Positions 7,579 to 36,400 of a DNA stretch of 64,000 nt are shown here, one piece after another. The stretch comes from Schmidtea nova (lineage: Eukaryota): assembly GCA_044892505.1 (NCBI GenBank), contig CM097884.1:82150001-82214000 (forward strand). Direction: 5' to 3'. Both the position numbers and the translations under genes were made by a program. The notes beneath the pieces were generated by a model. The model worked only from the letters and a program-made list of their open reading frames with translations. It was not told the DNA's origin and made no database searches. Every line of letters begins with the position of its first letter. Within the stretch, counting starts at the first letter, position 1.

Positions 7579-8341
7579 ATTTAAATAAAATATTTCGATC
7601 TTAATAAGACCCTGATCACTTCAATACGAAATTCTTTCCAATTGACTTCCTAATTCTTGCTGAATATTTTCTTTCTCCTGATTTCTATTTAATATTAATT
7701 ATTAAAACAAAAATAGATCTTAATTTGTTTTAATAATTAATATTAAACCAGAATTCAGGAGAAAGAAAATATCCAGCAAGAACTAGGAAGTCAATTTGAA
7801 AGAATTTCGTATTTGAGTGATCAGGATCTTTTTAAGATTGAAATATTTTATCAAATAAACATTGATTAGAAAGGCTTAACACTGTTACCTTATTATTATA
7901 TTTTATAAACTGCTAACGACAAAACAATTCGTATTTATACTTTCAATTTGAGCCAGATTACCGTCATCTTCAAAATAGCTACGGATAAGATTTTAAAAAT
8001 TTAAATTCAAAGTAAGATTTTTCCTTATGAAATTCATAAAAAGAGCTTTTTATTGAAAGAATTATTTTAATTTTGTGAATAAAAGTAGTTTTTATTTTTT
8101 AATGTTTTAATTAAAAAATAAGCATTTTATTAATGAAAAGACTTTGATTCTCTATGATTTTTTAAAATATTTTTAAAGAAAGAACACTCTAATTATTAAA
8201 ATTAATAAATAAAAAATTTTTAATTAAAATTAATCTATCTCCAGAATAAATCTTAATTTGTTTTAATAATTAATATTAAACCAGAATTCAGGAGAAAGAA
8301 AATATCCAGAAAGATCTAGGAAGTCAATTGGAAAGAATTTC

Positions 8342-8391
8342 GTATTGGAGTGATCAGGATCTTTTTAAGATCGAAATATCTCATTTAATAC
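8342..8391 (+). ncRNA. Minimal type-I hammerhead-like motif, G3-C8 variant (sister copies 7817-7847 + and 7589-7619 -)
   Basis: GUGAUCA-G-[GAUC uuuuuaa GAUC]-GAAA-UAU-C. Helix II stays pairable in all three copies, helix III is the palindrome AUAU, and a bulged helix I is possible. Activity is untested. Confidence 0.55.
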
Positions 8392-8679
8392 ACATTGCAG
8401 AGAAAGGCTTAACACTGTTACCTTATTATTAAATTTTAATAAGATCTCCCAACGACAACAACAAATGATACGAGCAACCCGCTTAAGTCGGTTCGCGACC
8501 CACACTGAGAACAACTGGAATATATTAAAAGTGAATAGAAAGTTTTTTTTACTTTTTATATTATAAAATAATTATAAAATAAATTCGATTGTTTGTTTAA
8601 ATAGACCAAAAATCTTTTCCGTAATTTTTAAAATTTAAAACAATTTGTTTAAATAATTGAATAATTAATTGTATTAAAA

Positions 8680-10044
8680 ATGAACACTGATCAAGATTGC
8701 GTGATATGTTACTCTCCAATGGCCATTGAGTCAAGTATAACATTTTGCGACTGTCGACATTCATTTTGTCGATATTGTGTGGAAAAATGGCTGGTTACCA
8801 ATCCAACTTGCCCTTTGGATAGAAGGCCAGTTACGTCACTTGGTTTATTAAATGGGAAACGCGAAAATGTTTTAAAAATTAAAAATTTCATTGACTTTAT
8901 CGATTTAAAAAACTCCGTAAGGAAAATAAATTCCAAATTGTGCAGTTTACCAAAATTTATCAAACCAAATAAATTTTTGCCATTTTTTCAATCTCTAAAT
9001 CAAGAAATATCAGAAGAAGAAGTCAATGGCATTTTTAAAAATTTTCAAGATAAACACATTGCATTCCGTAAATCCACAAATTCGTTCACAATATTCTACA
9101 GTGGGTTTGTGATCCTTATTTCTAACATTTCCGACATAGTCAGTAAATATCAATTATCCACTAGTGCGACCCATCGCTTGTTAGCCTATGAACTTCAAAA
9201 ACAATTTTACACATCCGGCATTTCTCTCCGTAGAAAACTCGATATTTTCCTAATCGCAGAAATGTGCATTGAATCGTATCAGCACCAAAAAATCAATCAA
9301 ACTCAACTTTTTGATTATTTTCAGCAATTTGCAAAAAGGCTGGAAAAGTCGAGCGAACAATACGAATATTCTTTTTCATCATTCCCATGGTTGATAGAAC
9401 AACTTTTTGTCTTATTCAACAACTTCGCGGAAAAACACCTCAAGGATTTCTTCCCTAATGTTTCCATTGAATATAGATCTTTAGATTTTTCACGGTCAGA
9501 AATTTTCATTGAAAGTCGTGGAAGTGAAGAGAAAATTCAGAAAATCAAAGACATGATAGTAAAATGTACAGACGATGACATTGGCAATTTTATTCTCGAT
9601 GATAAGTTGCAAGTTGCCATTGACATGTTCCAGAAGCTTTTGGAGTCGATAGAAAAAATTTCGAAAAATTGTTTACTGTCATATTCTTTACCTTTGGAAC
9701 TAAAAATACTTGAATTTGACTTGGATTCGATAAAATATGGCTATTCAAGAATTTTTGAAACATTTAGAATACTCTCTTTAAAGTATCTACAACCCAATTT
9801 AAATACATTTATTAAAAAGTCTATAAATATATTAAATTGCATATTTAACCTAATAACAGCCTTTCAAGATTATATTTCAAATGTTGACAATGGACATTTT
9901 CTTCTTATAATTAAACTGTTAGAAAAGAATCTCACAACGGAATTGAAATCTATGATAAAGTTATTTGGCTTGGAAATTAATTGTAAAGTTTTAAAAATTT
10001 GTAATTTAATGGAAAAATTCTATTCTTTTCTTGAGAATTTTTGA
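8680..10044 (+). CDS. RING-finger protein (putative E3 ligase) with an unrecognised C-terminal region of about 400 aa, intronless, 454 aa
   Basis: N-terminal C-x2-C...C-x-H-x2-C-x2-C...CPLD RING, with the last ligand Asp as in PHRF1/SCAF11/TRAF-type RINGs. A 1365-nt open frame is unlikely by chance in such AT-rich DNA. Confidence 0.75.
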   Translation: MNTDQDCVICYSPMAIESSITFCDCRHSFCRYCVEKWLVTNPTCPLDRRPVTSLGLLNGKRENVLKIKNFIDFIDLKNSVRKINSKLCSLPKFIKPNKFLPFFQSLNQEISEEEVNGIFKNFQDKHIAFRKSTNSFTIFYSGFVILISNISDIVSKYQLSTSATHRLLAYELQKQFYTSGISLRRKLDIFLIAEMCIESYQHQKINQTQLFDYFQQFAKRLEKSSEQYEYSFSSFPWLIEQLFVLFNNFAEKHLKDFFPNVSIEYRSLDFSRSEIFIESRGSEEKIQKIKDMIVKCTDDDIGNFILDDKLQVAIDMFQKLLESIEKISKNCLLSYSLPLELKILEFDLDSIKYGYSRIFETFRILSLKYLQPNLNTFIKKSINILNCIFNLITAFQDYISNVDNGHFLLIIKLLEKNLTTELKSMIKLFGLEINCKVLKICNLMEKFYSFLENF

Positions 10045-10480
10045 TGGTCAATAATTTCTAAGAAATCAAAATGAAATTTTTATTTCAATCGGGAACGTTT
10101 AATAACAAAATAAATTATTTTAATTCCACTTATAATTAATCCTTTTAAAATGAAATTGTTTATTACTGTTTCGAAAATAGAATTATTTTCTTTATTTTAT
10201 TAACCTTGGCAATAGGTTGTAATTTTAGTTTATTAAAAGATTAATTTTATAAATTATGATTATTTTTGATTAAATTGTACTGATTGAAATTAAAATGGTT
10301 TTCTTTGAATAAAATAATTTATTACCCAAAGGATTAATAGTCAATTATTATTATTATTTACTTTCATAGAAGGCAAAATTATATAAATTAATATTTACAA
10401 CAAAATAACTGTTTACAATATCATATCTTTTGTTTTCACCTTTGACCTCTTCTTTTTAATTCAATAATTTTTATTAATTT

Positions 10481-11120
10481 TTGTAAAACTATAAATCAAA
10501 ATTTTTTTTGGTTGTTGGTATACGATATTTTGGCACATCAGTCAAAAACGTGAAAATCATACATTATTGATATGACCCATCAACAACTCAACACAAAACA
10601 TTAGTCAAAACCATCTTGTTGCCCGTCACAATTTATCGTTGGTAATGCAACAAATGAGTGGATTTTCTCAAACAGTGAGCGTTGAAAAGTCGAAACTATG
10701 ATTGATTGAACATTTCAGTGGGTTCAAAAGCGACCGATAGAAGGTTTTTTGCCCATTTTGAGTCCATTAATATAATCATTATGTTATTTACTTCAAATGT
10801 TTGTAAAACTATAAATCAAAATTTTTTTTGGTTGTTGGTATACGATATTTTGGCACATCAGTCAAAAACGTGAAAATCATACATTATTGATATGACCCAT
10901 CAACAACTCAACACAAAACATTAGTCAAAACCATCTTGTTGCCCGTCACAATTTATCGTTGGTAATGCAACAAATGAGTGGATTTTCTCAAACAGTGAGC
11001 GTTGAAAAGTCGAAACTATGATTGATTGAACATTTCAGTGGGTTCAAAAGCGACCGATAGAAGGTTTTTTGCCCATTTTGAGTCCATTAATATAATCATT
11101 ATGTTATTTACTTCAAATGT
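10481..11120. repeat. Exact tandem duplication of a 320-bp unit
   Basis: 10481-10800 and 10801-11120 are identical on visual comparison. Confidence 0.92.
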
Positions 11121-11329
11121 ACTTAGTCTAAAATCATTGCTGAGATTCTGCGATCGATTTTAATATAATATACATATAATTGCTGTTAATTATTCCAAAA
11201 TAATAGCCAATCATAAAGAAAATCAATTTATATGCATGGAATTCATAATTTGTAATAATATTTGTTAATACATATGGAATTAAACAATGAACAATATGTA
11301 AAACAACAAAATCAATCACGATTCAATCA

Positions 11330-11820
11330 CATAGTTTTTTAAAAATCACTTTGCTCACAACACAGTGTGATCTATTGTCTCCAAGGATATTTTCCGGATC
11401 TGTCCTAGCACACAACCTTCCTGACAGCGTTTGTGGCGCCCTCTGATGCCTTTGTTGAGCTTCCAGCGTTTCAGCGTCTCGGTTGTTCGTCTTCTGCTCG
11501 GACGGGTAACAATTCAGGCGAAAGGCAGACTGCTTTGGGCAAAACAACTGAGATGATACTCGTGTCAGTTTGCACCTGCGCGATTACCGTGTCTTTCTCT
11601 TTCACCATCATCTTGAACTCCCGTAGTTGGATAGCGTCCTCGAAAGCCTGCTGGTTCAACAGTTGTATCAGTCACTTTAGTTTCTCGGTGCCCTCTTTAT
11701 TTGTACAGGTCGCTTCAATCGACTGGCAACGAGACCTAAACTTTTCCATCATAGTAATTTTCCACCCTTCCTCCATGTCGGAGAGTCTGACGTCAAATGA
11801 ACCGATTGCTTGGCGCATTT
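11330..11820 (-). pseudogene. Gag-like retrotransposon remnant
   Basis: A GC-richer island reading MRQAIGSFDVRLSDMEEGWKITMMEKFRSRC...KLK*LIQLLNQQAFEDAIQL... with an in-frame stop. It resembles LTR-retrotransposon gag N-termini; the family is not determined. Confidence 0.4.
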
Positions 11821-13219
11821 TCTGTGGTTCGTTTCAATAAAGTAATAATTAATTCTTCTGTTTAAATTAGACATCCATCTAACACTCCCTCTAACACTCG
11901 ACAAAATGTATCAAACCATGCAGACACATCATTCATACAAAAATTTATTTTTCAACATTTGGTGATAACCCACTCGCACACTTAATTATCTATAAAGTTA
12001 TCCTTCATTGAATATCATATGCTTCCTATACTGATTGAGTTTAAGTGGAATTCTTGTCTCTCAGTGACGAGCTCCAAAATTTCTGTGTAAATGAATAATA
12101 CAACAAAGAAATTAACATCGGTTTATCGAATTAAGAGGGAAGGAATCTATATGAATTTAATCAAATTCATACAGATTAATAAATAAAAATAATTGAAATT
12201 AATGTGTTCGAATTTCCACGGAGGCTATAGCAACAGCAAAGGTTTTCGTGTAGAGATTCTATTAATTTCTGTTTGATTTCGGTCCTTTTTAGCCTTAAAA
12301 ATTCAATGTACTCTAACAAAAATTGAGCTGAATTAGAGAAAAACAAAATTCTTAGAGACCCTTTAGTATAAGGTTTGAAAAATAAAAAATGCTACTATAA
12401 TGAATTTTTATAAGAATTATTAATTCAGAATTAGAATAGAATTTAGATCAAAGGAATTCTCATTTTATCCCTTTCCCATTAATCAGCTTATATTATGAAA
12501 TGCATTTTTAATGATAATTTATTGAATTTGTTACCAGCTATTTTTAGAACGAAATCCAAAGATTCATTGATGATTTTAAGCAGTACGAGTATGAATGTTT
12601 TTATTCTTATCATGATTTCCTTATCTTTCATTTCAGTTGACAACTTTGCCCTTTTAGATTATGAACGCGTTCAGATTCGCTCACCAATCTATGGGGATTC
12701 AAGTAGTAATAGTTTTCGAGAAAATTTCACCTTAGTTAATTTAATTCATAGATAATTCATTTAAAAATCTCTAATTTGTTTATTAAATTTATTATTGGAT
12801 TTTGGTGTCATCATGAATTTTAGACATCGCGCTCTTTCAGTTTCGTTTATGGTTGTATATTTACAACCGTATACAATATGCAAATGGGAGTTAATATGAT
12901 TGAACTAGGTATTATTTATTCAGGTTACATTTTTATTTCCCTTTTTCATTAAGATTTCTTTAAAAAAAATATTTAGGAAAATATTTTTTGTGGATTTTTA
13001 CATATTAAATAGAGATACAAAACTTTATATTTTGGCGATATTTTGGCCCGATATTTTGTATCCACCGTTTCCAGCTAAAGCCGACTCTGATCAGCATAAT
13101 AAATTACAGACCGTTTTGTTATAAAATAATATAAAAACATGAATAAATCTTATAATTATATATTTAATCATTAATAAAATATTATTATTTATAGATTCTT
13201 ATATAATTAATTCTAAAGG

Positions 13220-14184
13220 TTATTTAATATCACAGAGCAAGGCGACCCCTCGCATGACCCAATGATCGGGTGTTTTGGAACAAACTAATTCCACTGAAGC
13301 AACATACGTTAAATCAGTTCGACGAGGCTTCTTATAAATCGGTGTAGTATATAATTTTGAGGTGTCAATTTTATTCTTCGTTGCTTCCTGGATAGCAAAA
13401 ATATTTATCACAGGTAAATTATCATATAACTCTTTTGGTTTTGGTTCAGTTAATCTACTGTTTCGCTTATCCCATGCAGCTCCTTCAATAAATAATCCAT
13501 AGACATAGACACCTTCTTTAGGTGGCTCTCTTAATTCATCATGCAAATGTTTAGTGACTTTACTAGTCAAAACAACACTATCCAACGCCCAACCTTCATG
13601 AGATCGAGTAACTTCTTGTCTCATTGCGGTCAAAAATCCTTGAGCATTAAAAAATCCAGTCATCCAAAATGCAACTGGTCTTCCGTCGTTCAACCACGTA
13701 CTAAACTGATTATTTCTGTCAATTAACTCACTAAACCAAAAGCCTAAAGTTGCCGAATCCCAAGAGATCTGTAAAATGTTATTTATTTACAATTAACAAA
13801 TAACTTGATCTAACTTTCAACCAAATGTGGGGAATTTTCGCATCATATAGGTTGTCTAAAGCATCCCGAAGATTTTCATTCATTATTATTGTTCCTTGAA
13901 TTGCCAATTGCAAATCATTTAGTGTCGCTCGAACCATTTTAATGACTTTATTCATTCGATCTACTTCTTGTCGAAGAAATATGTTCATTGGTGCCAATGA
14001 TCCCATCTTTTGTAATTTCTCTTGAACTTGGTAAGGAATGTAATTACTCGGTAATTTCTGTAACATGTCTCCACATTGTCGCATTACAACACTCTCTCGA
14101 GTTTCACCCCCTCCGCTTGCTACATCTTTAGGTTGGATCGACAAAATTGTGTCTAAAATTTGTTTTGTCGTTTTTGTAGAATAA
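13220..14184 (-). CDS. DNAH5: Dynein HC terminal exons (C-terminal domain): 13815-14184 and 13220-13768
   Basis: 46-nt GT-AG intron 13769-13814 joins HIWLK|[11 protein letters not shown]; stop TAA at 13222-13220. Confidence 0.92.
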
Positions 14185-17100
14185 CTAAATAAATATTTTG
14201 GAAAAATTAAAATGAGATTAATTTAAAGGTTTTTATTAGTATGTTAATAACTACGTAAATTTCATATTTCAAACAATATAAGAAATATATTTCTTTTTAT
14301 TCAACACAAATTTTTGGCACTTCCAATTTTATGTTTTTAAATTTTAACATTTAATTAACAGTGCCGAAAATTTATGTTGATTAAGGGAAATAGTTTTAAT
14401 CTATTGTCTGAAAATATGTGAAATGGAAAGATCAAAAGGTGATTTAGATTTAAGATTTTAAGGATAATAAATGATAAATTATATGGAATTTCAGGAAACT
14501 GAGCCTTTTAAACAATGACTCCAATATAAGATTTTATTTACAATGAATATGATTTTGGTTTGCCTATTTCGATTTGTTTTTCATCCCGTCTTTCAAAAAA
14601 GCTTCAAATTGGCCAATATTTTAATATTCGAACCTCGATTTTGTGTCCTTTTAATTTAGGAATTCAAGAATTATAATAACTATTATCCTGTTATCCAGAA
14701 TTGGCGTATTATTATGTTCAAGCAAAAGAAAAGTAATAAATATTTTCGTTATTTATTTATTGATTATGTACTGGATAATTTGCAATTACTAGCTTTAATT
14801 TGAGTGTTGGTTATGAAATCTAGTGCCCTACCAAGGGCTATCATTAGGAATTGAAAGGACTGTGTAGAGTTGCTTAGTCGACAAGTATCATCTTGTAAAT
14901 ATTCGGCAAGGTTGGTGCAATTATTTTATGTTTGTAAAGCAAGTTCTCTTGAAAGAACCAAAACTGTTGTGCCAGCTCCGTTGTTTGCTCTAGCAACTAC
15001 GTTCTCAACGTGAATTATTAAAGTAATAGAAATAGATTGAGTAGAGGAAAGCCATTTTAGATTCCAATCGGTTCGACTGTTTTGTGCAATGGTATCAGCT
15101 AAAACATTGTAAAGTTTTGTCATTTTTAAGTCGGAATCAACGACAGAATTCAAGATTTGAGTCCTAATAACATGTATCTTTATTGGTAAATTGGATATTT
15201 ACAATTATTATTATGAAAATTATTAAATATAAAAAAAGAGATCCAAGATGAAACGAAAAATAATTATGATATTATTAAAATAAGTATTAAATAAAATCCA
15301 ATTTAAATATTGCTTATTTGTCAACGTCATAGTGTACGATGCATTTCAGAATAAAATTAGATCATAAAATATACAAAAACTTACATTGGGTAGAGAATTT
15401 CTTTAAAGTTAAAAATCTTTATTACACCTATTTTCATAGTTTAAGAATAACTATAATTACATCTACGTGTTACTAATAATTATTTGTCTTTATATTACTT
15501 AGTAAATTTTTAAAAATGGCTATAAGGTAAGTTTATTTATCAAAATATTTTTTAAGGCTTCTTTTGTGACCTTACAATGACATGAGATCACTATAGAAGC
15601 TTTGAAAGATTATCTTTGTTCTACAATTTAATTTTTATATTATTTTTAATACTTTCTAGGAAATATATGTTTTGTGAATTATTTACGTTAAAAGAAAGTT
15701 GAAAAATCATTTTAAACTAAGAATTATTACAATAATTATTATTAAATAAAAATTTTCTAATTATTTTTGAAATATTTTTTTGGATATTTCAAATCGGAAG
15801 TATTTTTTGCCATTTTACATGGCTATGACTATCCTGATTTTGTAGATTTTAGAAATTTTATTGTAGTATTTTATTTTCCAAATTGAAATTCCAAGTTTTA
15901 TTTTTTATTTTAAGCATTGCCAAATTTTACTGTCCTGAATTATCTGAGACTGAAAAATTATCTAAATTACCTTGTTAATATGTTTAATTGCTTATAAATT
16001 AAAAATAGTTATACATTATTATCTTTTTGGCTTCTGTAAACGGAAAAATAACTTTTGGAAATATATAAAATTTTCTATTAAAATTCATCAAAATAAAACC
16101 TACGATGTTTTTTATTCATTTTCTCGTCGACTTCATTAGGAAATATTCAAAAAACTCTATTTTAAAAGTAAATGAATTTATTATAGATCTCTTAATCGCG
16201 TATATAATTTACCTTTTTAAGTTGGCATGCCTTTTTCACTGTATGCTGTGTTTGGGTATGGGATTTATCATTTCTTTCACTTTGTATATCACATAACTAA
16301 TTTATATGTCACGTAAGTTTTCATTTGATATTGGTAATCTCTTAATGTATGAAAACAGGTGTAATAGACCAACGGATAGATAAATTAAACATACCAAAAC
16401 ATGCAAACTTATCATGTCATTTTTATTTTAAAATTAAAAACTTTATATAAATAAATTTTAACTGTTTAAAAATATTTTCATTTTTTAACATTAATAATAT
16501 AGTGCCATGATGTTAAAATGTTGAGCATTACCCAATAAGAAAAATGAAAAATAAAATTTAGTGAGTGAGCAATAAAATTCTTAATATTTGAAACAGTTTA
16601 ATGTGGGTTACAGTAATTTATTACAGTATATTTGCCATAAGCAGAAAAATGTTAACAGTGCTTAATGCATGCGTACATACACATTAGAGTCAGGAGCACG
16701 GGAATTATAAACAGTACAAGATATTTAATAGGCTTAGACATGTTTTAATGCGTAAATTTACAACGCATAATTTAACTTCATAAATAAGTGTCAATTTAAT
16801 ATGACGAACATATTTTTTTCAATTTATAGTAGATTCGATTTAAATATGGTGTATAGTTCCAAATTTTGGATGTTTCAACAGGCTTTCTAATTTTTACTAA
16901 TTGCAATATATTTTTATTCATTTGAATTATGCCAGATAGCCATGGTAACGAAATTAAAACAATTGTATGCTTGAGAGTATGTTTAAGAAATACTTTAAAG
17001 CCGAATTCTGTTATTATTTTCAAACATCTTTGGAGAGGAACTTATATTAATATTATCCTTGGCTATTAAATCAATGAATCAATTACAATCATACGTTATG

Positions 17101-20100: not shown

Positions 20101-23100
20101 TTTTCATTTTGTGACTATTAATTATTTTATTTAATTTATTTAATATTTAACCATCCAATTTAATTAATTTAATTTAATATTAGGTATTTGTCAATAACTT
20201 CAATTAAATAAAAACCCATATAAATATAATTAATACTTTGAGCCCTGTTCCCATTTTAATAAAATTCTTTTCTAGAACTTGATCCAAAGCCGGATCCAAT
20301 TCTTCATTAATGTCTTCTATAAGCATTGGTCTTCCCAGTGATAAAGCATCTTCCAAGTGTTGCCTGAAGTATTTATGATTCAAACTTGTTATCTAAAAAA
20401 AGAATCATTATATATATTTTTAACATTATTTATAAATTAACTTGTAATTCTTTGGCTGCTTCTCTATTTTTAATCCATATTTTACCTTGACCTTGTGGAT
20501 CTATAAGCAATGGATACCTCGCTGCTGATGTTACAATTATTCCATTTTGAATGGACAATTCATCATTGGGGAGACCTTGTAAATTCCATTCACTAATCTG
20601 TAAGTGAAAAATTTTATTTGCAATTAATTTAATATTTAAATAACCGTAGGGGCATCCGTCAGCGTTTTTATTAGATCTAATCCATGAGTTGATGGAATAC
20701 TCTTTCTGACTACTTCCAAATTCCATGTTGTCATCAATTTAACACGAAAATCCTGATTAAATGGACCGGTATAAGATAGAAAAGCTGTACATAATAAAAT
20801 ATCTCCGACTAGTTTTTTCGTTTGATCTTTAAATGATTTGCTTTGCTCTGTCCATCTGATTTTTTCCCCGGAAAGACCATCAATTAACTGTTTTGCCGTA
20901 TTCATTCTCCTCCGACAAGCTTCAGCATCATCTGCTAATTCTTGCTTTCGCTTCATAGCAGCTTCATATTGAGCTCTTACAATTGCAAGTAGTTCTTCTT
21001 TTTCCATCAAGAGATTTTCAGCAACTGCTAAATCACTGTTGGCACTGTTTAATTTTATTTCCTGTTTGGCTAAATTATCTTTTAATGGTAAAACCTCTCT
21101 GTTGACCCAGTAAAACTTTTCCATCGCTCTAGTCCAACCTAATAAACCTGCGACGTTTCCACAAACTTTCTTCGCAGTTTCTAGTGTATAGTCTTCCATA
21201 GCCAAATAAGGAGTCATTAGATCGACCATTTCTTCGTTAATTGAATCCCGTTGAAAATTCAAAAGATTGTTCAAAAATCCAGAATTAGCCATCAACTTTA
21301 GGGATTCGCCCCAGCTTGGTTTACAGCATGGCCTCTCGGGATCGCGAACGACAATATCCATACCTCTTTGGAAAAGCAATAACACGCAATCCATAATTCT
21401 CATAATTAAATGCGGCGGTTTTGCTAATTTTCTTACAGTTGAAATGTCTGCTGGTTTGATTGTGTTTAATGCTTCTTCGGCTTCGAGTAAAGCCGGCTTA
21501 GCTGCTTCCAATTTAGCCTCTGCGATTGCTTTATCTTCATTAATAGACATGACAATTTTTAGACATCGATCTTTGACTTTTTGAACTTTGTCCTTAACTC
21601 CTTGTGCAGCAGCGGTCTGCTGAGTAACGGTTTCTAATACTTTTTCCGCCTCTTTGTTGGCAACCTCAAGTTCTTTTTCTTTTTCCGCCAATTCAATGCT
21701 CAACTCCGCAATTGACTGTTGAGCTTCTATTAACTTCTGAAGACCAGAATCCATTCTTCTAGCCAATTCAAGAATGAAATCTTTCTTCTCTACGTAAACC
21801 TTCTGGTAGCTTTGCAGAAATGAAAGATATGATTTTGGAGTAACATGAGTAATTCGTCTGTATTTATCAAAATATTCACTACACTTATTTGCAACATCAT
21901 CATGAATAAAAGAAACACTGGAAATTATTCCAGTTTTAGTTGCGGCATCGCAGACCATTTCAAAGTTTCCCAAATAATGTTCAGCCACTGCTAATAATGC
22001 ATCTTTCGGCCATTTTTGAAACCAATCAGTAATACATCCTGAAATCAGACCTGGAAAATATAACGCGCGAGTTCGAAATTTTTGTCCAACAGGAGAAAAA
22101 CACAAGACCACATGAAGATTTTTTCGAACCCGACTGAAGAAATATTCAAGCAAATTCTCATTTGTTGGAGGTCTTTTTGGAAATTCCTTTTTCATAACTG
22201 GAACGAGCATTCCTGTCATCTCATCAATTTCATCTTTTTGAAAAAGCCCCGATACCTTTAATTTTAAGTAGTTAACTATAATTATATATATATATATATA
22301 TATATATCTTGGCTTACCAAAATTCTCCAGTCAGGCAGTAATTTACATATTGCAGTTTATAATGAATGTCTGCAGTGCAAATATGAACAGCAATGGGAGC
22401 AAAGGTCACCAACACCTTTAACATGCTGCATGCGCACATGTGCACAAGCACACACGCACTCACACACACAGACACATATAGAATATGACTACTGACATCA
22501 GACACACAACAGTGATAACAGTGAGTCATTTAAAGAAGGATTGTCATTTTCTTAGAATATAGTTAGACCTTACAGACTTTCAGAAAGGCAATATTTAAGG
22601 ATGTTACCTTTATGGAAAAAGTCATAGTGAAACTGCTGCATTGACTGGCCATCCCCAAAAGAACTATTAAGTACTTCCTGAGGAAGTACCGCCAGGAGCA
22701 GACACGTGTCAACAAGCAATGTTCAAGCCACCCTAAACTTCTGAGCATCCGTACACAACGGCCACTGAAACGACTTGTGGTAGTTCATCGTCGGTTCCCC
22801 CTGTCCAAGTTAGTGTCCACATTTAACACTGGCCCTGTGCATGCCAGGATGTCCACCATTCATCGCGCATTACATTTTCATTGTTTCTATCGCAAATACT
22901 ACGCAAGGAAGCCTTTGAATACAGAAACAATTCGTCATCGTCGCTTGAAGTGGTGCCGGGAGAGAAGAAGTTGGACAGCAGAACAATGGCACTTAGTCAT
23001 TTGGAGTGATGAATCACATTTCCTCATTTTTAAATCTGATGAACAGTAATTCTGCTGGCATCGTGCAGGAGAACAATTTCACACTGACTGCATTGAGCCA

Positions 23101-24636
23101 ACTGTGAAACATTGAGGAAGCTCCATCATGTTTTGGAGTCTTTTCTCAGTCCGTGGAACTGACTTCTAGTGAAGTGCAGCAATTACATGATGTTAGTGAA
23201 ATACCGTGCCATTCTGGAAAATGAGCTTGTTTTCTTTCTCCTATAAATTGAGGGGCTCATTTTCCAACAGGATAATGCACCAATCCGTACTTCACACATT
23301 ATGAAGGAATTCTTTCTGCAGCACAGTATCAACGTTTTGGATTGGGTTCCACAAATCCCTGATCTGAATCCTATTGAGTTTCTGTGGGGCGTCCTTGTTA
23401 GAAGAGTTCGCAAAAGGATTCCCATTGCCCGTAACGACCCCGAACTGGAAACGCAGCTGCATGAGGAATGGTCACACATATCCCCTGATTTCATGGAAAA
23501 AGTGGTCGATACAATGCCTAAACGAGTGCACTTTGTTATCCAGATGAAAGGTAATATAACGAAGTACTAACTCTCTCAGCACTACAGACATTCAGTATTC
23601 GTGTGTGTTTGTGACAATGGCTCCAATTGCTGTTCATTGTAAACTGTTCATAATAAACTGAAATATGTAAATAACTGCCTGACTGGAGACTTTTGGATTT
23701 CGAGAATTTTTAAATTACAAGTAACCCTCGAAATTACAAAATGTAATTCATAGTTTGTGTAAAATATCGAATAACTCAAGTATCGTGTAACTCACTGGTT
23801 ATTTGTAATATAAATATTCATTAGGTAAAAAAATTGTTTTATTTTAATAGTAAGTAAAACTTACAACGCCCGACGACAAAATATTATTCATATATTCTAA
23901 AAATCCTTCATCTTTAATATCATTATCAGTAAAAATAAATGTTGTTCCCTTTCCTTCTTGACCAGCGGTCCGGTAGAGAGTTTTTAAATCTTCTAATAGA
24001 TTTGAGACATTGTAGCTCCTATAAAATAGAAGTAACTAAATATAATAAAATATAAAATACTGTAAAATATCAATTTTAAGATGTTTTTTAAAAGAAAATA
24101 TAATTTCAAAATTCATTTTCACTAAGGGATTTCTCGATTGAGGACTTTATAATTCCGGGATTGTGACCGTATATTTTAAGTGTATTATTGCGTTGATGTC
24201 GATCATTCTTAATTTGAACATCTTATATAAAACACAAAACTGGTTCAAAGTTTTATTGAAAACAAAATTTGACTTCAAACAAATAATATTAACTTTTATT
24301 AAAAATTACCAATGCTCCATTGTGGTTTTAGCAGCTGAAATAAGACAAAATAAAACTAGAAAATAATTAAACATTTTATTTAAATTCCAATGTATTTGTT
24401 GTCTGGAAACTGATGATCTGTTATTTTGCTTCGTAAATTGATGATTCATTATTTTGATTTTGAAATTGATGATTCTTCGTTTTTGAAATAGAGGGGGAAA
24501 TGTTTGCTGCTATGAATTATATATTTTTTTGATTGATATTTTCTTCTTGCTTGGTATTTTTTGAATCAGTAAGAAAGTGCATTTTTTGGTGATTTAAACA
24601 ATCCATTTTTATTTGTATATATAAATTAATATTTGA

Positions 24637-24694
<58 letters not shown>

Positions 24695-27600
24695 GATATA
24701 ATATTTAACTAAATTTCTATATATAAAATATTATACTAATATATAAATAACGGAGGCACTACAGTGGTCAATTCAGGGAAAAATTGATCTACCAATAAAT
24801 ACAAGTATATGAATATAATTATAAATATTAACGTAAAAAAGATATATCCGGGACTGGCTTTACCTGGAAGCAATGGATGCAAAGCATTGGGCACCTCTTG
24901 TATATGGCGCTTAAAAATAGAATTTTAGTCTATTTAATATGTAAAAAACTATTAAAAAATTAATTTTTAATTTTTAAAGAAATTATTTTTAATAAAATTT
25001 CCTTGAAAAACTACGAGTCACTAGTTTTCAAAGTGTTACTGAATTAATTAGTTATTTCGCAAAAAAGTAATTATACATGTTCAAATTTACTTTGAAATAT
25101 AGTAGGCTATCTAGTTATCAATTATTTCGATGAAAGAAATTAATGCTATACGTATTTTCTAAAATATTATTTTAAAAGTCTACCAGTTATATTCAGTTTT
25201 CAATCTATTCAAAAAATGCAAACATATTTCGCTAATAAAAAACAACTTAATATTAAAATTTCATAGTAAAACATGTTCAGTATTTTAATATATGTAATTT
25301 TGAAAAGCCCAATAAATACTAATATTTATAATAACCATATTTTAACTTCCTCATATTTGATCTGTCACAATTATTAATATATAATTTGCAATTTAATAAT
25401 GTCTGTTTGTCCGGATGTAAAGCTTTTAAAGGGCGCTGGTTGGCCGAATTTTCAATCGGAAAACTTGCAAATTCTTTCACGCGTGTTTGATGTTTCATTG
25501 GATAATTATTTGCTATAATTTTTTTGATGACTCAATAGCATTCACCCAAAATATTATTGAGAACTTATGAATTTAATTTTTGGTTTATATAAATTTAGAA
25601 AACTTTTGTCATTTTTGACGGGATATCGCTAGTAATAAATAATATTGAATTTAAAAATCTAATCTATATGCTCGCATCGCTCGAAGTGAAAAACACTTGT
25701 TATTGATTCTTGGTATTGGATATTAATCTTGTCATAAAAGGTGTTGAATATGAATTAAAGCAATAAAAGAAAAGATTGATTTTAAATGCATCAGAAAATT
25801 ATGTATTTTAATAGATATTTAAACAAATGTCGGTCATTTTTGATGGGTTATAGCTCAATAATTTGATAACGTGTTTTTTTCTATTTAACAGAAACTTTAG
25901 TTCTGCGTTGCTTAAATGCTTTTGAACAATATTATTTAGTTAAGTTTATAAAAATGAAAGATAATAAATTAATTTTATCCTATGAAAATTTAACTAAAAC
26001 AAGTAAATCAAAAAACAATTGAAGACACGCTTTTATTACTTTATATTTCTTTTCCATGCAAAATATACGAATTTTGTAAGTTTCAACGTCCTAACTTGTC
26101 AGAAAACCGGTTAAATATCTAATTAGGAATTCCAGGACAAAAACAAACAAATAGGAGATAATTAAAAGCATGTAAAAAGACAAAAAGGCAATGATTCTAT
26201 GTGAGCTGAAAATTGACAAAAGAGGTTTTGGAGAGCAATCATCAGAAGGAATTTTTTAAACTCATTTTTTAAAAGTTGATCTTTTATTTCATCAATAGAT
26301 GGGGTCATCTTATGTACTTTTCACAATGTTCGCTTTAATTTTGGTCACCTTTTAGATGGGTTCATTAAATTAAGTACAAAAGAATTGAGCATGCCTCCTA
26401 TATAAGTTCAATTACATCCTAAATAAATTGGATTATAAACAGTTTTTTATGAAAAACGAAAATATTTGGTTGAAGATAAAAATAATTGCCAGATCAAAGT
26501 GTATGTCTTGAGGGAAAAGATCTGATATTTTAGTAAATTTTGTGATATTTTTAACAAAAAAAGAATCTTACAATTAGTAATTTAAAGCATATATATTTGA
26601 AAGAAAATCATCTATGTAATTAAAGGGTGTATTAAGACTAAATTGTGTCGTATAAGGGTACGGTGGCACAATAAACGCTAATTTTCACGACTTAAATTTC
26701 GTAACTCATCAAGATTTCAGTTCCGATTGCGTGAGTAAGTCATAAAATCATCCTAACCGTTTGCAAAAATAAATAAGAAGGTAACAGTTATTTTATTAAA
26801 CAGTATAAATGACATCATAGGATAAGTAATCAACAAAAATGAGAATGTTTATAAAATTCAAGGTAGAAGGAGTCTACTCTTACTTCATCCTGTGAACTCT
26901 CTAAAATGTCTTCAACTCGGACAGTTGAAGCATCTGCACCACACTCCGGTTTATTGACTGTATACAGTTAATATATTCCAACAATTCGAATCTACCATAC
27001 CACTCCAGTTTGACTTTTGTTGGCTGGCGTCTAACTTGAAGTAAAAGTATATATTTTTTATTGATATGAATTCTTAAAACCAGCGATTACCAAACATTTT
27101 GGAGTCCCAAACCCTATATTCTAAAAACATTTTACCGACGCCCCCCCCCACAAACGTAATATTTCTGATCCAGTCACGAATATAAAGGAATAATAAAAAA
27201 AAACTTATATAATATTTTTATTTATTAAAGTATTAGAGAGATCTTTAACTTCGATAAAATTGAACTGACTGAAAAAATGATTGACTTTATCATCAACTTT
27301 TCACTTGTCGATTGCTCTTGTTTTTTCTCTTATGAATTTATGTCGAACCAACCAGCGTTAACGATCGAAAAATTACACGAGTAACAATAAGTCTAAAATA
27401 TGTTTAAATAATAGTTTTGTAGCTCCGAATCCCTGAAATAGGCATATAATTGACTTGGTCTCCATAGACCCTTTTAATTTAACCTACCGCCCCAAGTGGG
27501 CGGTATTTTCCACTTTGGGAAACACTACCTTAAACAGTAAATCACTTTCAGGCCCATTGTTGCGATAGCAAAAATTGCTTAGTCTGTAAGCTGTAGAGAG

Positions 27601-30600
27601 AAAAAATAGGCTGGCCAGAGGTAGAGATGGGTGCAGATTCACTAGCAACAGAAACGAATGAGACCTCACTGGTATTATTGTAAAAATAAACATATAGAGG
27701 TTAAGTAAAGAATTTAGTAATGCTTTAAAATGTTGATACTTCATTTAACCATTTTTTTTGGTCGTTGTTGAATATTTAAACTGTTCTTTACCATTTTATA
27801 TTTATTTGTAACTTAAGTTAGTTAAAGATCAAGAGTTTTGATCAATTTACGTAGCTATTAACAACCAAGCGGATGTATTGAAACGGAACTACGAATAATT
27901 ACATACACAATTTTACATTTATTTATTATTTTTAAATGGAGTTTAAATAGATAACCGACAATATATATATATATATATCAAATATGAAAAGAGAAAAGAG
28001 AAAATTAATCAAAATTATCGGAGAACATGTTGCTGAGCGCGTGCTCCTCTCCATGCTTATGATGCTACACAATTGGTCTCAGTCCGATTGGTTACATATT
28101 TTAGTAAAATGAAAATAATATAGACAATAAAATATTTAACATTCCTTGTTAGTGTAATTTGAAAAGACGAGTATCCGGCAATATGCGCCGCCAATCTAGT
28201 CAAGGACTGTTTTCCAGATCCACCGACACCAACTAAAAGAGCATTTCCCAAAGGTGTGCGAATTATTCTCGACACTTTTACTAAATGTCCCATAGCATCA
28301 TTAAAAAACACCAAATCCATCCCTGCTCCACGAATAGATTCATTGTAATGATTCATAAACATAAGTAAACGGCTTTTTAAAGAGTTTAAGTCAGCAATCT
28401 GGATATCGCAAATAAATCAGTAAGGAATATAAACGATATAATAAAATAAACATACAGGCTCATAAATTTTCGGTGGCGAAAAATCAAAATCTTCAGGCTC
28501 TTCTCCAGTTGGCTCTGGGGCATCTCTAGAAAGCCATTAATTTAGATATGAAATGTAAAAATTGACAAGTTACCTCAAAAAGTCTACAAAATATGACGAA
28601 TCTTCAATTGACTCTGCCAATTCATTGGAAATTTCTTCTGACACCATTCTCTGTATTATTTTAATAAACCACTGTTCGTCGTCCAAACTGACAAAACGAT
28701 CGGATATTACTCGCATGCATTCATGCTTCCATAAAGCTAATAAAACCTCTCTGTTGGCTATGACCTAGATATGAAAAAAGATGAAACGTGGAATTTTTAT
28801 AATTTTATTAAAATCGTTTACGAATATAAAGTAAAGATTAAAATTTTCGATAGTTATCAAATTAAATAAAATTTAAAAATAAAATTTCATGTAAATTAAT
28901 AGTATTTTGTAAAGAGATAAAAAGATCTTTTGGGCTTCTAGTAGTGTAAAGATTTTCATGCGCTGAGAAACTAATTTAATTATTCTATTATTGTTTTTTC
29001 TTATTTTCACCTTTGATCTGTTCGTTTCTATTTCAGAAATTTTGATTTATTTTAAAAACTATTTATCAAAATTTTAAAGGCTACACAAATTTTTGGTACA
29101 ATCTATTTTTTTAAATGCATATACACACTTGAAAAAGCTGTGCTGAGAATTGGTGTTCCTTTAAAGCTTTAATTTCTGTCAGTCTATAAAGGACTGGCAC
29201 TAAAGTTTCCGTTTACGTTTTGTCAGTCCCCAAGAACTGACAGTAATAAATTACTTTGTGAAGACTCTTAATGTTTCGAAATAATAAATCAATAAAAATT
29301 AATAATTTAACCCTTTCCTATCCTGTGTCTATAAAAATATCACAAAAAAAATTAACCATTCTATCCTCTGTCTGTAAATAAATGACATTATTTTTGAATA
29401 GTTTATTTCCAATGCACTGTCGATTATATTATGACCAACTGTTTATAGAGCGATTATGACATTACACTTTTTTGAACTTTTTTTGAAATTTTATTAGGAT
29501 TGGAACGGGCGGGACACATAAAATAAAGAAGATAGGAAAGGGTTAATAAATTGATATATTATTATGTATTGTTGCATTTTGTAGTCTAGAATCATTAAAA
29601 ATCATATAACAAATGTATTTATCCGCCCTAAGGCGATGGGTAGGAACTGGTTGTAAATATAAAATATAAATTCAGAAACATTTTGTGATTTGCAATGAAG
29701 TTTTTTTTATATTGAAAATTTTGAAAAAAAGAGAAACATATTTAAGTTATTATCAATTGAAAGCGAGTTTAATTAAAATTGAGCTGTACATCTTTGTGAA
29801 TTCATTTTTCCAAAGATATTCAGCTTATCAAAGTTAATCTTATTTAACTTCTTGAAAAGCGTCGCAGAGTTCTTATTAAAATAAGAGATCCGGTGGACTG
29901 TAGATAAAAAAGGAAATTAATGAAATGTAAAATTAAATAATAAAATTAACATTTACGTTGAACTGAGCTCATGTCAGTCTATTATGCCACCTATCCAAGG
30001 CTACCACTTTGAGTCATTCTAATGAAATACCAACCTCGGTATCATGAAGATTTTAAAGAAAAAATAAAAAAGCAAAATCTTGCAAAATTTATTTTAAATA
30101 AGTAAATGTTTTGAGGTTGAATGCACTTGCTATAAAATGTATCTTTTTCAAGTTAAAAGCGACCCAGAAATCTGGATACTTAAATTTGGCGTGAAAGCGA
30201 TTACTGTTGGATGTTCTCTATTTCCTTCCTAGAGAAAAAAAAATTTATCTCCTTTTTCTCGTGAGATAATTACACCACAAGAACCCATTTTAAAATCAAA
30301 ATTGGCAGTAGTGAATCGGAAATTATGGATGTAAGGATGTAAGGATGTGATAAGTGTATCTTTTTTACGCGGAAAATGAACAACGTGGTACCCCTGTAAC
30401 CAATTGACGGCGTTCTCCGAGAAACAACAATGTGTATATTATGTACGTTTTAGTAAAAGCTTTATAAGGAATATGACTTTGTTTGATAAATCTTACATCT
30501 GAATTGGTATTGATAATCCCTTGCCATATCCTACTCAAATCTCGTAAATTAAATACGTAATGGAATTTTGCTGGAGTTGGTAACATTTTAGTTTTAGTAA

Positions 30601-33367
30601 CCTGCCATAAATTTCTAGTTAGAGGTATTAACTTTTTCACGTATTCAATGACTTCTTGACTGAAGCCCCTTTCAGAACAGTAATGCCCCAATCCAATAAC
30701 ACTAAACACTTTATCTATACTGTTATTACTCGGAAGAGTACAGTTGAAAATATTAAAATGTCTTTTCAATCTCTCTGGAATATCGTTTCTACCTCCTCCA
30801 GGATGTATCATAGCTGATAAAAACTTAAGAAAAATAGTTTTATTGATATAGACAAATAAGTATTTTACTTGAACATCAACGATATTAGTAAATTCACCGG
30901 GTCTTTCTAAGCTATAAAATCCTTTCATTTCCATAGTTTGACGGACAATCTCATTTGCAATTTGATCACCCCATTCATTTATTAAAGGCATATTAATATC
31001 ATCGATAAATACTGACATCTTTTTACCAGCAGGAGGGCCAAAAGTTGTCCCCACCCTTTTCTCCACAAAACTTTCGATAGTCCTCTACAAACGAGAATAA
31101 ATAATAATAATTTGCATTAATTATTTAGAATATATTTTTTATGATTATTAAAATGAAAATCAAATATGAGAACAATTTTCATAAAAATAAAGTCATTTTA
31201 AATTCTTTTTACTATTTTTTTAAAGCATACCCGTTTTTATCAATTCGAGTGTAATTTGACATACGGCAGAGAGACTGCCCATTATCTATGTACACGAATT
31301 CAAGAAAATTGCTGACCAAATAAAATTAGTAATCTTTGGGATCAAAAACAAGTATGTCTGATTTTGAAATTTTATTAAAATAATTTGGCAATTATTTGGA
31401 AAGAATCATTTGTAAGAATTGATATTAAAATTGTTAGATTCAAAAAAACTATGTTCAAAATACCTTCATCGTCAAGCATTTTAAAGGTTTTGTTTTGAAT
31501 TTGGTTTTAAACTTACGCAATTATCTAATATTTGCTCTTTGTATAATCCTTTCAATATGACTTATGGCCAATATTAGGAAAACACTGAAATTAATAATTC
31601 CTTGTTTGAATGAAACGATAAAATAATATGTAGCAATTTCTCAAAAAGTAAACTTAAATAATAAAACACAGGAAAAAAATTAAAAACAGAAATTAAAATT
31701 AAAAAAACAAATGTGCAAGAAGTAAGTACGAAATAACATAAACATGTTGAGGATACCTAAATTAGAAATAATATAATAAATAAACAAAATTACTTGGGGG
31801 AAAATCGTCATGGGGAATGACACGATTGATTGGAGCCTGGGAAAGAAAACGGAAATAAAAAGGAATGAGAAATGAGAATGGGAAACAAAAGAAAAGAAAT
31901 CAGACATGCAAAACGAAATAGAGGTCAGCACTAATTAACTAGTGCAAATAAGAAGAAATTCTAAAGTTGGGAAAAACAAAAACAACCACAAGAATTTTAT
32001 CTCGACAACCGGTCAGAGATAATGTGGGCAAAAATCAAACAAGCCGGAACGGCAAAAAGGAAAAAAACAGAGGTTATCTTGACAGCTGTCAAAGATAACT
32101 GCGTTGCTGAGAAGATGAATGGGAAATCATGTTGGAAAAAAGGGAATAACAGCTTATAATTTTAAGTGCTACAAAGTGAAGATGTATTAAAGGAGGAAGC
32201 ACCTCAGAAGAGGACACAACATTGTATACAGAAGTTATTAGAGAGAACATTGTAGACAGAATATTTGAGAGACAACGATTGAGACAGAACATTTGAGAGA
32301 ACATATTTGGCGGAGAATATTTGCGTTTAAAGACTGAAGTCAGAGGAAAAATAGGAGAAATTTGAAGCAGAAAAACGTCCAGAGAAAGTTAAAGAAGAAT
32401 CAAAAGGAGAATCCAACAATTGAAACCAGAAACTAAGGGATAAGCAGCAGGAACTTATTCAAGAGTTTGAGAAAATAAAGCTAGTAAAATTCAGCGGGTA
32501 AATCCAAGTCAAACTAAGAAAATAACCAGTCAAATTACCAATTGTTATACTCCCCAGCAGTGTGTGATTTCGAATATCGATTATACACCAGTGCTATTCT
32601 TCACTATAGTGTCGTAATAAGCACTGTATAATCAGCTGTAGTTTTGAATTTGGTCAGTTCATTGTAAATTGAAATTATTTGTGATAATCAATAAAATTTC
32701 CTGCTGTCAGTTGTTATTGTGGGTCAATTAGGAGCACGTTTTGGAGTCAGGGTAATAATTTGTTAATTATAAAGTCACCAACGACCCAATAACCCAACAA
32801 ACATAACAAATAAATCCAAAAAATAGAAATTATGCAAGGAAATGAAATTCGAATAAGTTTTATAATAATTATTTTAGTTTTGAAGTTAAAAATAAAGGAA
32901 TTATCATGAAAAACATTTAGAATAAAAGTTAAATTTAAATAGTTTGAATATTATATAAAACTAGGTTGTTTTTTGTTAGATGTTACTAGTACATCTTCTA
33001 GATTAGATTCATTAGATGTTATAATTCAAAAATATTATTAATATCATAATACTAGGTTGTTCTAAGGCGCCAAGGCGCCCCCTTAGCCAATTTTTCACTT
33101 TTGGCAGTTTCATTTTTTAGTATTAAATAATTGAAAAAAATAAATGTTTTTTAAAGTTGTTAACTTTTAACTTAGAATTTTATTCAACTTATTATGATTT
33201 GCCTAAAGAATTTCATTGTACACAATGTTTCATGTAAATAAACGATCGTCACCTAACAAATGTCCATCTTCAATCTTGATTTTGACATTTTTTGCGTTTC
33301 TTGATCTTGATCCTGTATATCCAAGATCAATATGGTCATAAACTCTCTTAAAAAAATCCCCAAAAAG

Positions 33368-33408
<41 letters not shown>

Positions 33409-36400
33409 GAGTATTGATTTAGATCTATTAAATTTTAGATAATATTAAATTAAATTTTTAAATTAAATTAAATTAAATTTTAATAATATAACCTGAAATA
33501 AAGCAGGTGTAGTAGCAGACGAAAAATTGAAAGATTTTGAAATTCGAGTCTCAATATTACTCTTGCCCATATATTTTGTAATCATAACTGTTTTTGCAGT
33601 TCCTGGCTCTCCGATAAGTAAGACCGATTTTTCTTGTTTCGCTATATTATCCATAAGAAACTCCGTTCTCACGTTGTCTACGTTGGGTACGAGAATTTTC
33701 GAATACTCTGGAGTATAATCACGAGGATAAATATATTCATCCATGTAATGATTCCAATGGTCCCATTTCCCTATTTAGAAATTCAGCATGGAGGAGTAGT
33801 TTTAGAAAATATCTAACCTTCAGCATTTACTTTGTATTCAAAAATTGTAGAATCGGTTTCCACTTCTGGCAAATCTAAATTTATTTCATTGTCATTTCGT
33901 AAAAATTCTTCCATTTTCGCCCTTTCATTTAATTCAAGGAAAGCTCCCAAAGACCACATGAACGCAAACACGTACAATCTTTCAAGATGTTTATCTGGAA
34001 GACTTTCCTGGAAAATAATCCCTTGAAGAATGTCACAGGCTTGTCGTATAATAAATGCTTCCAAAATGACCATTTTCATAGTTAAGTTATTAACAACATA
34101 TTTCAATGTCTGTGGAAATGATTTTTCAAACAATGCATATAACTTTTCTCTTTCCGACATCGGTCTAGTCAAAAGCCATCCCTGTAGCATAAAAATGAAA
34201 CAAAAACACATATTATGTAATATAACCTTCAATATTGGACTCCAATTAAGTGCTGAACTAGACATAAACACCATTCCATTCCGTGAAACTGTTGCAGGAG
34301 ATGCATTGTCGATGTTATGTACCTCAAAGATGATTTTGCAGTTCGGACCCATGGGAATTCGATCCCCGTTGGCAAGAGTTAAAGTTTTATTATCATCTAA
34401 TACTGAATTCAAATTTTCGATCCAAATAGCGTCGACGGGACCATCTAAAATTAGCCAGCAATGTTCGCCTTTCTTTAATTTCAAAGTCCGTCTCCAAAGA
34501 GTGGAAAATATTCCATCTGTCCAGTCATTTGTTGCAACATCCAATTTACCAAACATTTCAGAAGCTAAAATTGCTTTCGGATTCATTCTCATTTCTCTAT
34601 GTGGATCACCACAGTCGGTGAGAGCCTTCATTAGGACAGTGATACAAATTGATTTCCCAGCTCCAGAAGGTCCAAGTGTCATCATGCCATGGCGAACGCA
34701 TTGTGTTTCATATAACTTAGTCAAATTAGAAATTTATTTGGTTATGTAAATTAATATACTTGAACGACTTTTAAAACCCACGGAGGATGATTTATCATTT
34801 TTAAACTGTCTACTTGTTTGCGTACAGAGCTTTCAAGCTCTGGATAACCAGCTTTGTCGAGAACAATTCCGGGAAACAGATCATTTATCAAAGACAAAAA
34901 TAGAGGTTCATCCTGGTCTACCAGTTTGCTCAAATTCATATCTCTTAAAACTCGCATTACAGTGCGGTCTTCTGAATCATTTGGCGCGACTCTTCTAGCT
35001 GAGCCGAGAGATCTCAATACGGATAAAATGTTCCTCAATCCAAAGTCATAATGAACCTGTCATTGAAATAAATTTTCAAGGAAAAATGAATAATTTTAAG
35101 TAAACCACTTGTAAATATTTATTTTTAATAACAACAGATTTTACAAAAAATAGTATCAATAAAATTATATATGCTTATTACAAAATAAATGATATTGTAG
35201 AGACTTTTTATCAAAATTATAATTATTATTTTAATAAGTCAACAACTAATAGAGATATCAATTACTGAATGATCTATCATTTATTTACTCAATTCTTAAC
35301 AACAGAAGAACAATTGAGATAATGTTTGGATTTCGTTGTTATACGATATTTCGCTTTACGGACAATTCTTTAGGGACGTATCTAGACTGCATGACGAGGT
35401 ATTTGTGAAATCACTTTTTCTAATTTCAAAAAAGCACTCGAAATTANNNNNNNNNNNNNNNNNNNNNNNNNNNNNNNNNNNNNNNNNNNNNNNNNNNNNN
35501 NNNNNNNNNNNNNNNNNNNNNNNNNNNNNNNNNNNNNNNNNNNNNNNNNNNNNNNNNNNNNNNNNNNNNNNNNNNNNNNNNCAAAAATTTTTTTTTATAA
35601 ACAATAACACAATATTTCGGCACAGCCTTTATCAAGTGTGTATTTGTTTAAATATTTAGTAATAATCAGTATTAATTATGTTCAAATTGTATCAACATTC
35701 AATTTTTTAAAAAAAATTCTTCAAATAATTTTCAAGTTGATTTTTTTATGTAAAAATATATTTTAAAAAACAAAAATTTTAATTTTTTTATCAAAATTGA
35801 ACAAAATAATTTTTTTTCAATACCAGTTTTAAAAAAATGAAAAAAAACACATTAAAAATCCAAAACACAATTCGAAAAATGCAACATCCAGTTACTTAAA
35901 CACATTCAAAATATCCGTAGAAGATATTATAAAAAATACCTCACAAGTTACTCATTCTCATTAATTACTCAAACTTAATTAATTACTCATTAATTACTTT
36001 TGTAATAATATTAAAGTGAGAGATCTATAAAAATTACTTTGAAAATTTTATATCTGAAGAATATATTTAAAAAAATTGAATGTTAATACAATTTGAAGAT
36101 TATTATTATTGATTAATTTGTTAAAATATTTCGAATTTTTTATTTTTTATTTATTATCCTGATTGCTGGCCTGAAGAAGAGTGATATTCGGACGAAATAT
36201 ATAGCGTTATGTTGAATATACTTAGCTGGCGTTTCTCATTTATTAAATCATTGCCATATTTTTTTGATTAATTATTANNNNNNNNNNNNNNNNNNNNNNN
36301 NNNNNNNNNNNNNNNNNNNNNNNNNNNNNNNNNNNNNNNNNNNNNNNNNNNNNNNNNNNNNNNNNNNNNNNNNNNNNNNNNNNNNNNNNNNNNNNNNNNN

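Follow-up and report, generated by a model that had tools for sequence, protein, structure and literature searches.

Introduction

Minimal hammerhead ribozymes of Penelope retroelements, many families of them per genome and a natural U3-A8 version of the core 3-8 pair are already in print (PMC4209133; PMC3088659). The min-hammerheads of Cervera and de la Pena 2014 (PMC4209133) have an extra base after A9, G10.1-C11.1 in helix II, a palindromic 15.2-16.2 and no or a short loop, and they lie in pseudo-long terminal repeats (pseudo-LTRs), with thousands of stubs and several families per genome. In this study we analysed a 64,000-nucleotide stretch of Schmidtea nova (contig CM097884.1, positions 82,150,001 to 82,214,000 of the forward strand, hereafter the window), whose five hammerhead motifs share these features and include three versions of the 3-8 pair. 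We consider it probable that these predicted minimal type I hammerheads lie near the 3' ends of three Penelope-type families, and that selection on the fold has kept positions 3 and 8 pairable while the identity of the pair shifted between lineages.

The 3-8 pair positions the hammerhead general acid (PMC6155905, PMC3884650), and the accessible text of PMC7151607 and PMC6155905 held nothing further on it. Perreault et al. 2011 (PMC3088659) likewise described natural 3-8 covariation, with only U3-A8 named for this pair in the portion available. About 1,300 U3-A8 variants are known from Schistosoma mansoni, and Saccoglossus 1, one of the 56 representatives in Fig. S3 of PMC4209133, has U3·G8. 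In the literature covered, G3-C8 appears only as an engineered mutant with partial activity (PMC11167929; PMC8495972, PMC3884650). A search for planarian Penelope hammerheads returned nothing specific among the matches listed. A published Schmidtea motif (PMC4209133) closely resembles one family of the present genome.

Three versions of the 3-8 pair in one window

The co-occurrence of three Watson-Crick versions of the pair, G3-C8, U3-A8 and C3-G8, had been reported in an earlier note on this DNA, and all three were found again (Table 1). The G3-C8 sequence GUGAUCA-G-helix II (6 bp)-GAAA-UAU-H is located at 7817(+), 8350(+) and 7619(-), and the U3-A8 sequence UUGAUAA-A-GGC/GCC-GAAA-UAU-U, with a helix I of 4 bp, at 35635(-). 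The C3-G8 motif is present as a degenerate copy with a broken helix II, but its CUGAAGA starts at 36171(+), 6 bases ahead of the coordinate given earlier (36177). The layout GAAA-UAU-H, proposed as common to all versions, fails for the C3-G8 family, in which helix I pairs only as GAAA-UAUA-U-H, with AUAUAU as helix III, and the predicted cut site is 2 bases later than that layout implies. As a single insertion holds all three G3-C8 motifs, the window counts as three observations rather than five.

The families carrying G3-C8, U3-A8 and C3-G8 in the window are referred to as A, B and C. Their motifs show the minimal type I core N3-UGA-N-N8-A...GAAA...U-H with a pairable 3-8, and all three families have G10.1-C11.1 in helix II and the extra base after A9; the exceptions among the window copies are the broken helix II at 36171 and a G·U in the 7817 copy. 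Across all families compared, helix I closes the junction with 2-4 pairs, being short in A and C, and helix III is a palindrome reading AUAU, AAUU or AUAUAU. The five motifs appear to be passively inserted copies, most of them decayed.

Table 1 Hammerhead motifs and the elements that carry them in the window
Feature	Position	Strand	Identity
Family A, non-coding 572-bp repeat in partial tandem: ~1.3 units at a spacing of 533	7708..8458	+	81% over 686 bp to young tandem unit
Minimal type I hammerhead, G3-C8, decayed: G·U at helix II base, helix I 2-3 pairs	7817..7847	+	
Minimal type I hammerhead, G3-C8, helix II 6 bp, AUAU palindrome, predicted cut after 8380	8350..8380	+	
Family A inverted copy, 5'-truncated, head to head with the tandem, split by a later insertion	7322..7710	-	
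Minimal type I hammerhead of the inverted A copy, G3-C8; 3' side broken ~10 nt past cut site	7589..7619	-	
202-bp miniature element, terminal inverted repeats, 8-bp target duplication, inside the inverted A copy	7377..7578	.	
Family B short 3' stub (~66 bases), running into N stretch	35582..35647	-	100% over 62 nt to full element
Minimal type I hammerhead, U3-A8, with 4-bp helix I, 3-bp helix II and AUAU; commonest family B sequence	35611..35635	-	
Older Penelope-like element (family C), 3' end, running into N stretch	36020..36277	+	85-89% to best relatives
Hammerhead, C3-G8, AUAUAU palindrome, helix II broken at two pairs, predicted cut after 36203	36171..36203	+	

Genome-wide excess of pairable 3-8 combinations

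A strict descriptor, composed after the motifs were known, gave 4 matches in the window (the degenerate copy at 36171 was not picked up), against none in 291 and one in 9 of 300 block shuffles. For the whole genome of 1.25 Gb we used the pattern UGA-N-N-A-N-G, 7-18 nt, C-GAAA-UAU-H, with the reversed pattern as control. It matched 73,538 times (37,163 + 36,375) versus 352 (164 + 188) for the control, an excess of ~200-fold; these numbers count copies, not evolutionary events. Both comparisons favoured real motifs. Chance matching in AT-rich DNA could be invoked on account of the short core, the ~30% G+C of the window and some repeated matches that were indeed due to chance, one of them an A3·C8 sequence without helix I inside a gag-like coding frame. 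The ~200-fold excess, the paired helices in all families and the fixed position past Penelope frames leave this explanation virtually no room, as counts, positions and shuffles already refute it.

By pair, the matches comprised 50,340 with U3-A8, 13,104 with C3-G8, 4,361 with G3-C8 and 99 with A3-U8. Complementary combinations were far commoner than others, as the earlier note had expected, with 67,904 of the 73,538 matches (92.3%) being Watson-Crick at 3-8; a crude expectation under independence, which ignores descent, is 59%.

A fourth Watson-Crick family with A3-U8 was considered and rejected, as its 99 matches compare with 24 in the control and the sole recurring sequence is a passenger, namely a broken B-like fragment without helix I inside a larger repeat, which is also present as A3·A8. 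This host repeat (L238-L247; G000 C1-C3) has a frame of ~1,425 codons, ~590 nt upstream of which the fragment lies, and we take the frame to be DNA polymerase B-like and the element Polinton-like. A second G3-C8 family with a different helix III (154 matches vs 59 in the control) consisted mostly of changed A copies and was not counted. Another small G3-C8-type repeat had no palindrome and an unconvincing helix I at the 3 loci opened.

Families B and C are linked to Penelope-type frames

Linked Penelope frames with reverse transcriptase (RT) and GIY-YIG domains, which the earlier note proposed to look for, are present for two of the three families, B and C. Full copies of family B form tandem units of 2,762-2,769 bp (2.77 kb) with an open frame of 869 codons, in which both RVT_1 and GIY-YIG, the latter C-terminal, scored above the cut-off, and the hammerhead follows 101-106 nt past the stop codon. 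A PDB search with the B protein gave a single weak match (E 0.055). The Penelope assignment of B and of two further families, E and G, comes from domain matches and pairwise identities. With the C-terminal 174 residues of B as query, 150 of 150 scored matches, out of 24,998 candidates, were 100% identical, indicating that family B is young and very abundant.

Family B also displays the traits of Penelope insertion, with tandem and inverted insertions, a tail and the hammerhead in a pseudo-LTR. Of the 56 copies with a measured tail, 21 stop at 60-69 nt and 26 at 100-109 nt past the cut site, and these two lengths resemble the pair of RT start points from which the Penelope tail arises (PMC11167929). 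The likeness to Poseidon PAc of Anolis (PMC11167929) extends to RT with a C-terminal GIY-YIG, tandem units, a hammerhead near the frame start, two tail ends downstream and AT-rich targets; PAc, however, has C3-G8, and the first methionine of family B lies downstream of the ribozyme. Two other readings of B were dropped, that of a 95-nt element, as its seeming extension is (AAT)n, and that of an antisense ribozyme, as full elements run on upstream into the frame. Many B stubs (L032-L060, L111-L140) start no more than ~15 nt upstream of the core and are arranged as tiny head-to-head palindromes. Older B-like hammerheads (L274, L278, L289, L292) have the AAUU palindrome, with U3-A8 in three of the four and G3·A8 in one.

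Family C is an older Penelope-like element than the young family B. Helix II pairs over 5 bp in most of 30 aligned members, a set that includes the window copy. The family occurs as inverted pairs with a fixed 3' end, and its frame survives as remnants; in longer copies, GIY-YIG remnants (~45-68% identity) lie just upstream of the motif at several loci.

Family A is a non-coding, retrozyme-like repeat

The unit of family A is 572 bp long, with 21% G+C and a longest ATG frame of 28 codons. Upstream of the motif the sequence runs into the tail of the preceding unit, and the 572-bp loop closes without a frame. Copies range from stubs through partial tandems to long arrays of identical units that include an inverted arm, and they are flanked by (AAT)n/(ATT)n; in one array, 19 units lie on one strand and 15 on the opposite one, with a single change among them. 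The tails end near +50 and +90-95, that is, in two lengths, as in B. The window insertion, ~1.3 units at 7708-8458 plus a truncated inverted arm (7710-7322) that was later split by the 202-bp element, contains a direct repeat with 92% identity over 194 nt and ends in the longer tail. Of 99 distinct A copies, 91 have G at N3 and 91 have C at N8. Conservation of the core (0.94 vs 0.90 and 0.89 in the flanks) was left unused, since many loci had been retrieved by the core pattern itself. A 19-kb palindromic A array of 34 near-identical units at G000 C1:18440494-18459892 (L223-L225) lies between a B element and a G copy.

These features suggest that family A is a non-coding dependent repeat, inserted in the Penelope way. 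Its partial tandem, inverted arm and tail match the layout described for Penelope insertions (PMC8557442), minus the frame. Like animal non-LTR retrozymes (PMC7229834; bioRxiv 10.64898/2026.07.22.740005), it is an AT-rich non-coding tandem with one type I hammerhead per unit and likely a Penelope enzyme, and it also recalls a 450-bp Drosophila willistoni tandem (PMC4209133, Fig. S5). In contrast to retrozymes, which have a canonical hammerhead in a unit of about 300 bp and are expressed as self-cleaved monomers and circles, it has a unit of 572 bp, a minimal G3-C8 hammerhead, an inverted arm and two tails. Given the minimal G3-C8 hammerhead and the unit length, we use the term 'retrozyme-like' and do not count A as a retrozyme.

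Family A might instead be the pseudo-LTR of an autonomous G3-C8 Penelope element that was overlooked, considering that a small share of the 4,361 places was opened and that most Penelope hammerheads are stubs distant from a frame (PMC4209133). The closed 572-bp loop argues otherwise, and none of 29 loci chosen for their upstream part extends into shared coding sequence. The lone frame found nearby, upstream of an A copy in L233, was rejected as the parent of A, being a family G frame that has a ribozyme of its own at the end. We rate a hidden autonomous parent as highly improbable, and a dependent repeat is preferred.

Family G, an RT and GIY-YIG family outside the window, was met during the hunt for the parent of A (loci L233:3604-6470 and L145:3481-5400; G000 C1). 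Its 3' region is 470 nt long and its copies are up to 99% alike. The hammerhead has U3·G8 in 3,426 of 4,068 matches (the control gave zero) and a helix III of AAUU, which places it outside the layout of the earlier note; older relatives of G carry U3-A8. As a young coding family with a wobble, G shows that the rule at 3-8 is 'pairable' and not strictly Watson-Crick. A and G agree in the additional G, in how helix II begins and in a portion of the tail. Compared with 8 tails, that of young A scored best against G (43), a score that 0 of 200 shuffles reached. From this sequence likeness, G or a relative is a likely source of the helper enzyme for A, with moderate support. The proposal of several independent hammerhead-bearing retroelement families holds insofar as each motif belongs to its own high-copy family, but the independence of A is doubtful because it is non-coding and dependent and its tail resembles that of G.

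Weighing selection on the fold

Complementary covariation had been taken in the earlier note as the mark of selection on ribozyme structure. The 92.3% Watson-Crick share agrees with this; however, the copies are inherited, so that the evidence for selection rests on ~3 pair changes, not on thousands of matches, and one family has U3·G8. We chose 11 representatives of 10 families or subfamilies by hand, among which helix II has 3-6 pairs and helix I 2-4, with differing sequences, and 15.1-16.1 is palindromic in all 11. The 3-8 state is C-G in families C, C', D, E and F, U-A in B and old G, U·G in G and G-C in A. The three non-canonical states that occur as the rule of a family, U-A, G-C and U·G, are all pairable; with 5 of 15 combinations pairable, (5/15)^3 comes to ~0.04 by hand calculation, a suggestive result from a small number that fits the known 3-8 pair (PMC3884650). 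The repeats opened with unpairable 3-8 bases were not ribozymes, one being the passenger without helix I and the other the match in coding DNA. Furthermore, three parent frames with RT and GIY-YIG matches are each followed by their own hammerhead 101-470 nt past the stop.

Several results weigh against this reading. An Rfam search of the window with E up to 1 found no hammerhead family, though its models may not cover minimal motifs; the top match, under threshold, was a microRNA model on the inverted repeat at 7645-7791. Genome-wide, 5,634 of the 73,538 matches were not Watson-Crick, with 2,084 in the A3 row, 1,134 in the U3 row and 2,416 in the C3 and G3 rows. Most of the first 100 entries in each of the A3 and U3 rows were isolated altered copies of the large families, or else a second UGA within a C3-G8 motif, whereas the 2,416 C3 and G3 matches were counted only. 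Besides the small number of pair changes, a single event may account for U3-A8 in both B and old G, and the family list is incomplete. Single motifs, unconstrained, do not fold as hammerheads, and the dimer fold of a two-unit A transcript lies ~21 kcal/mol above the minimum (-106.7 vs -127.5). No coding parent with G3-C8 was found in the ~90 of 4,361 places opened. The resemblance between the A and G tails is modest (68% across 104 nt of AT-rich sequence), and the tail of an older A copy gave no significant score against G, which 12 of 200 shuffles reached. In published work, dead ribozyme mutants left in vitro insertion unreduced (PMC11167929) and Penelope clades thrive without a hammerhead (PMC8557442), so selection may be weak.

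The same observations would fit hammerheads that are no longer needed for cutting, their fold being a signal for protein binding or packaging, or a passenger beside the RT start, with the pairable 3-8 partly a matter of luck. Apart from the absent effect of ribozyme mutants on in vitro insertion of the anole element, no RNA ends were seen at its cut site (PMC11167929). Family G amplifies despite its wobble, independent pair changes are few and the dimer fold is unfavourable. However, G3-C8 is two transversions away from any other version seen, both of them restoring pairing, and U4, G5, A6, A9, G12, A13 and A14 are kept in 11 of 11 representatives while the helices differ, although the search patterns required these residues. 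We consider loss of the cutting role unlikely and prefer selection on the ribozyme fold.

Proposed mechanism and significance

Under selection on the fold, tandem copies would be transcribed and two ribozymes of one transcript would build helix III by pairing at their AUAU or AUAUAU palindromes. Such a dimer, with slow cutting of paired motifs in tandem transcripts, has been modelled previously (PMC4209133, PMC6765202). The dimeric ribozymes would cut slowly, probably aided by the protein of the element; protein-assisted cleavage, a tail from two internal RT starts and partial activity of a C3G/G8C mutant were described for PAc (PMC11167929). The Penelope RT-endonuclease may then nick AT-rich DNA and begin copying 50-100 nt downstream of the ribozyme, which would be retained even in the shortest stubs; copying from just past the ribozyme into AT-rich targets follows PMC11167929. 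For family A the enzyme would have to be borrowed, with G or a relative as the most likely lender.

The engineered C3G/G8C mutant of PAc (PMC11167929) bears the very pair natural to family A. We tentatively entertain, without favouring it, the idea that A carries an active, naturally selected G3-C8; the genome would then hold four working 3-8 states (C-G, U-A, U·G and G-C) among young families that are amplifying, and slower cores in this natural series would spare multimeric RNA as a template for long tandems.

G3-C8 occurs in none of the 56 representatives in the accessible part of PMC4209133, whose descriptors covered C3-G8 and U3-A8, and counts there reach about 9,000, compared with the 73,538 pattern matches and the U3-A8 majority here. 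As far as the literature covered extends, a high-copy retrozyme-like repeat whose natural core is G3-C8, next to families with U-A, U·G and C-G, is new, although the element types are known. Lunse et al. 2017 reportedly treats variant Penelope hammerheads; this paper and Przybilski and Hammann 2007 lay outside our full-text search, which found no natural G3-C8, and could alter this. Most descriptors assume C3-G8, yet this pair accounts for 13,104 of the 73,538 matches here. Given a high-copy G3-C8 family and a U3-A8 majority, such ribozymes are undercounted by standard searches. With four natural core states present among the young families of a single genome, selection on cleavage rate and its effect on tandem length become testable.

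Other features of the window

A decayed copy of family D, absent from the earlier note, lies at 59708-60077 (-), with its core at 59790 and GAAA changed to GGAA; D is another C3-G8 family, with a spacing of ~963 bp elsewhere. Older B-like remnants comprise a palindrome of two tails without a ribozyme (46312-46451), a single tail (10424-10509) and a piece of the GIY-YIG frame (26219-26485). The U3-A8 and C3-G8 motifs lie between exons of what is presumably a dynein heavy chain-like gene, and a dispersed repeat occupies 35650-35920 between the B and C copies. A RING-finger frame without introns is found at 8665-10044 (+), ~220 nt past the tail of the A insertion, and the 202-bp miniature element inside that insertion is one we assume to be hAT-like. 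DNA transposon frames of the hAT (Dimer_Tnp_hAT; 52913-54538, -) and DDE_1 (42328-43659, +) families were also present, together with what we take to be a Tc1-like DNA transposon remnant at 22645-23570 (+).

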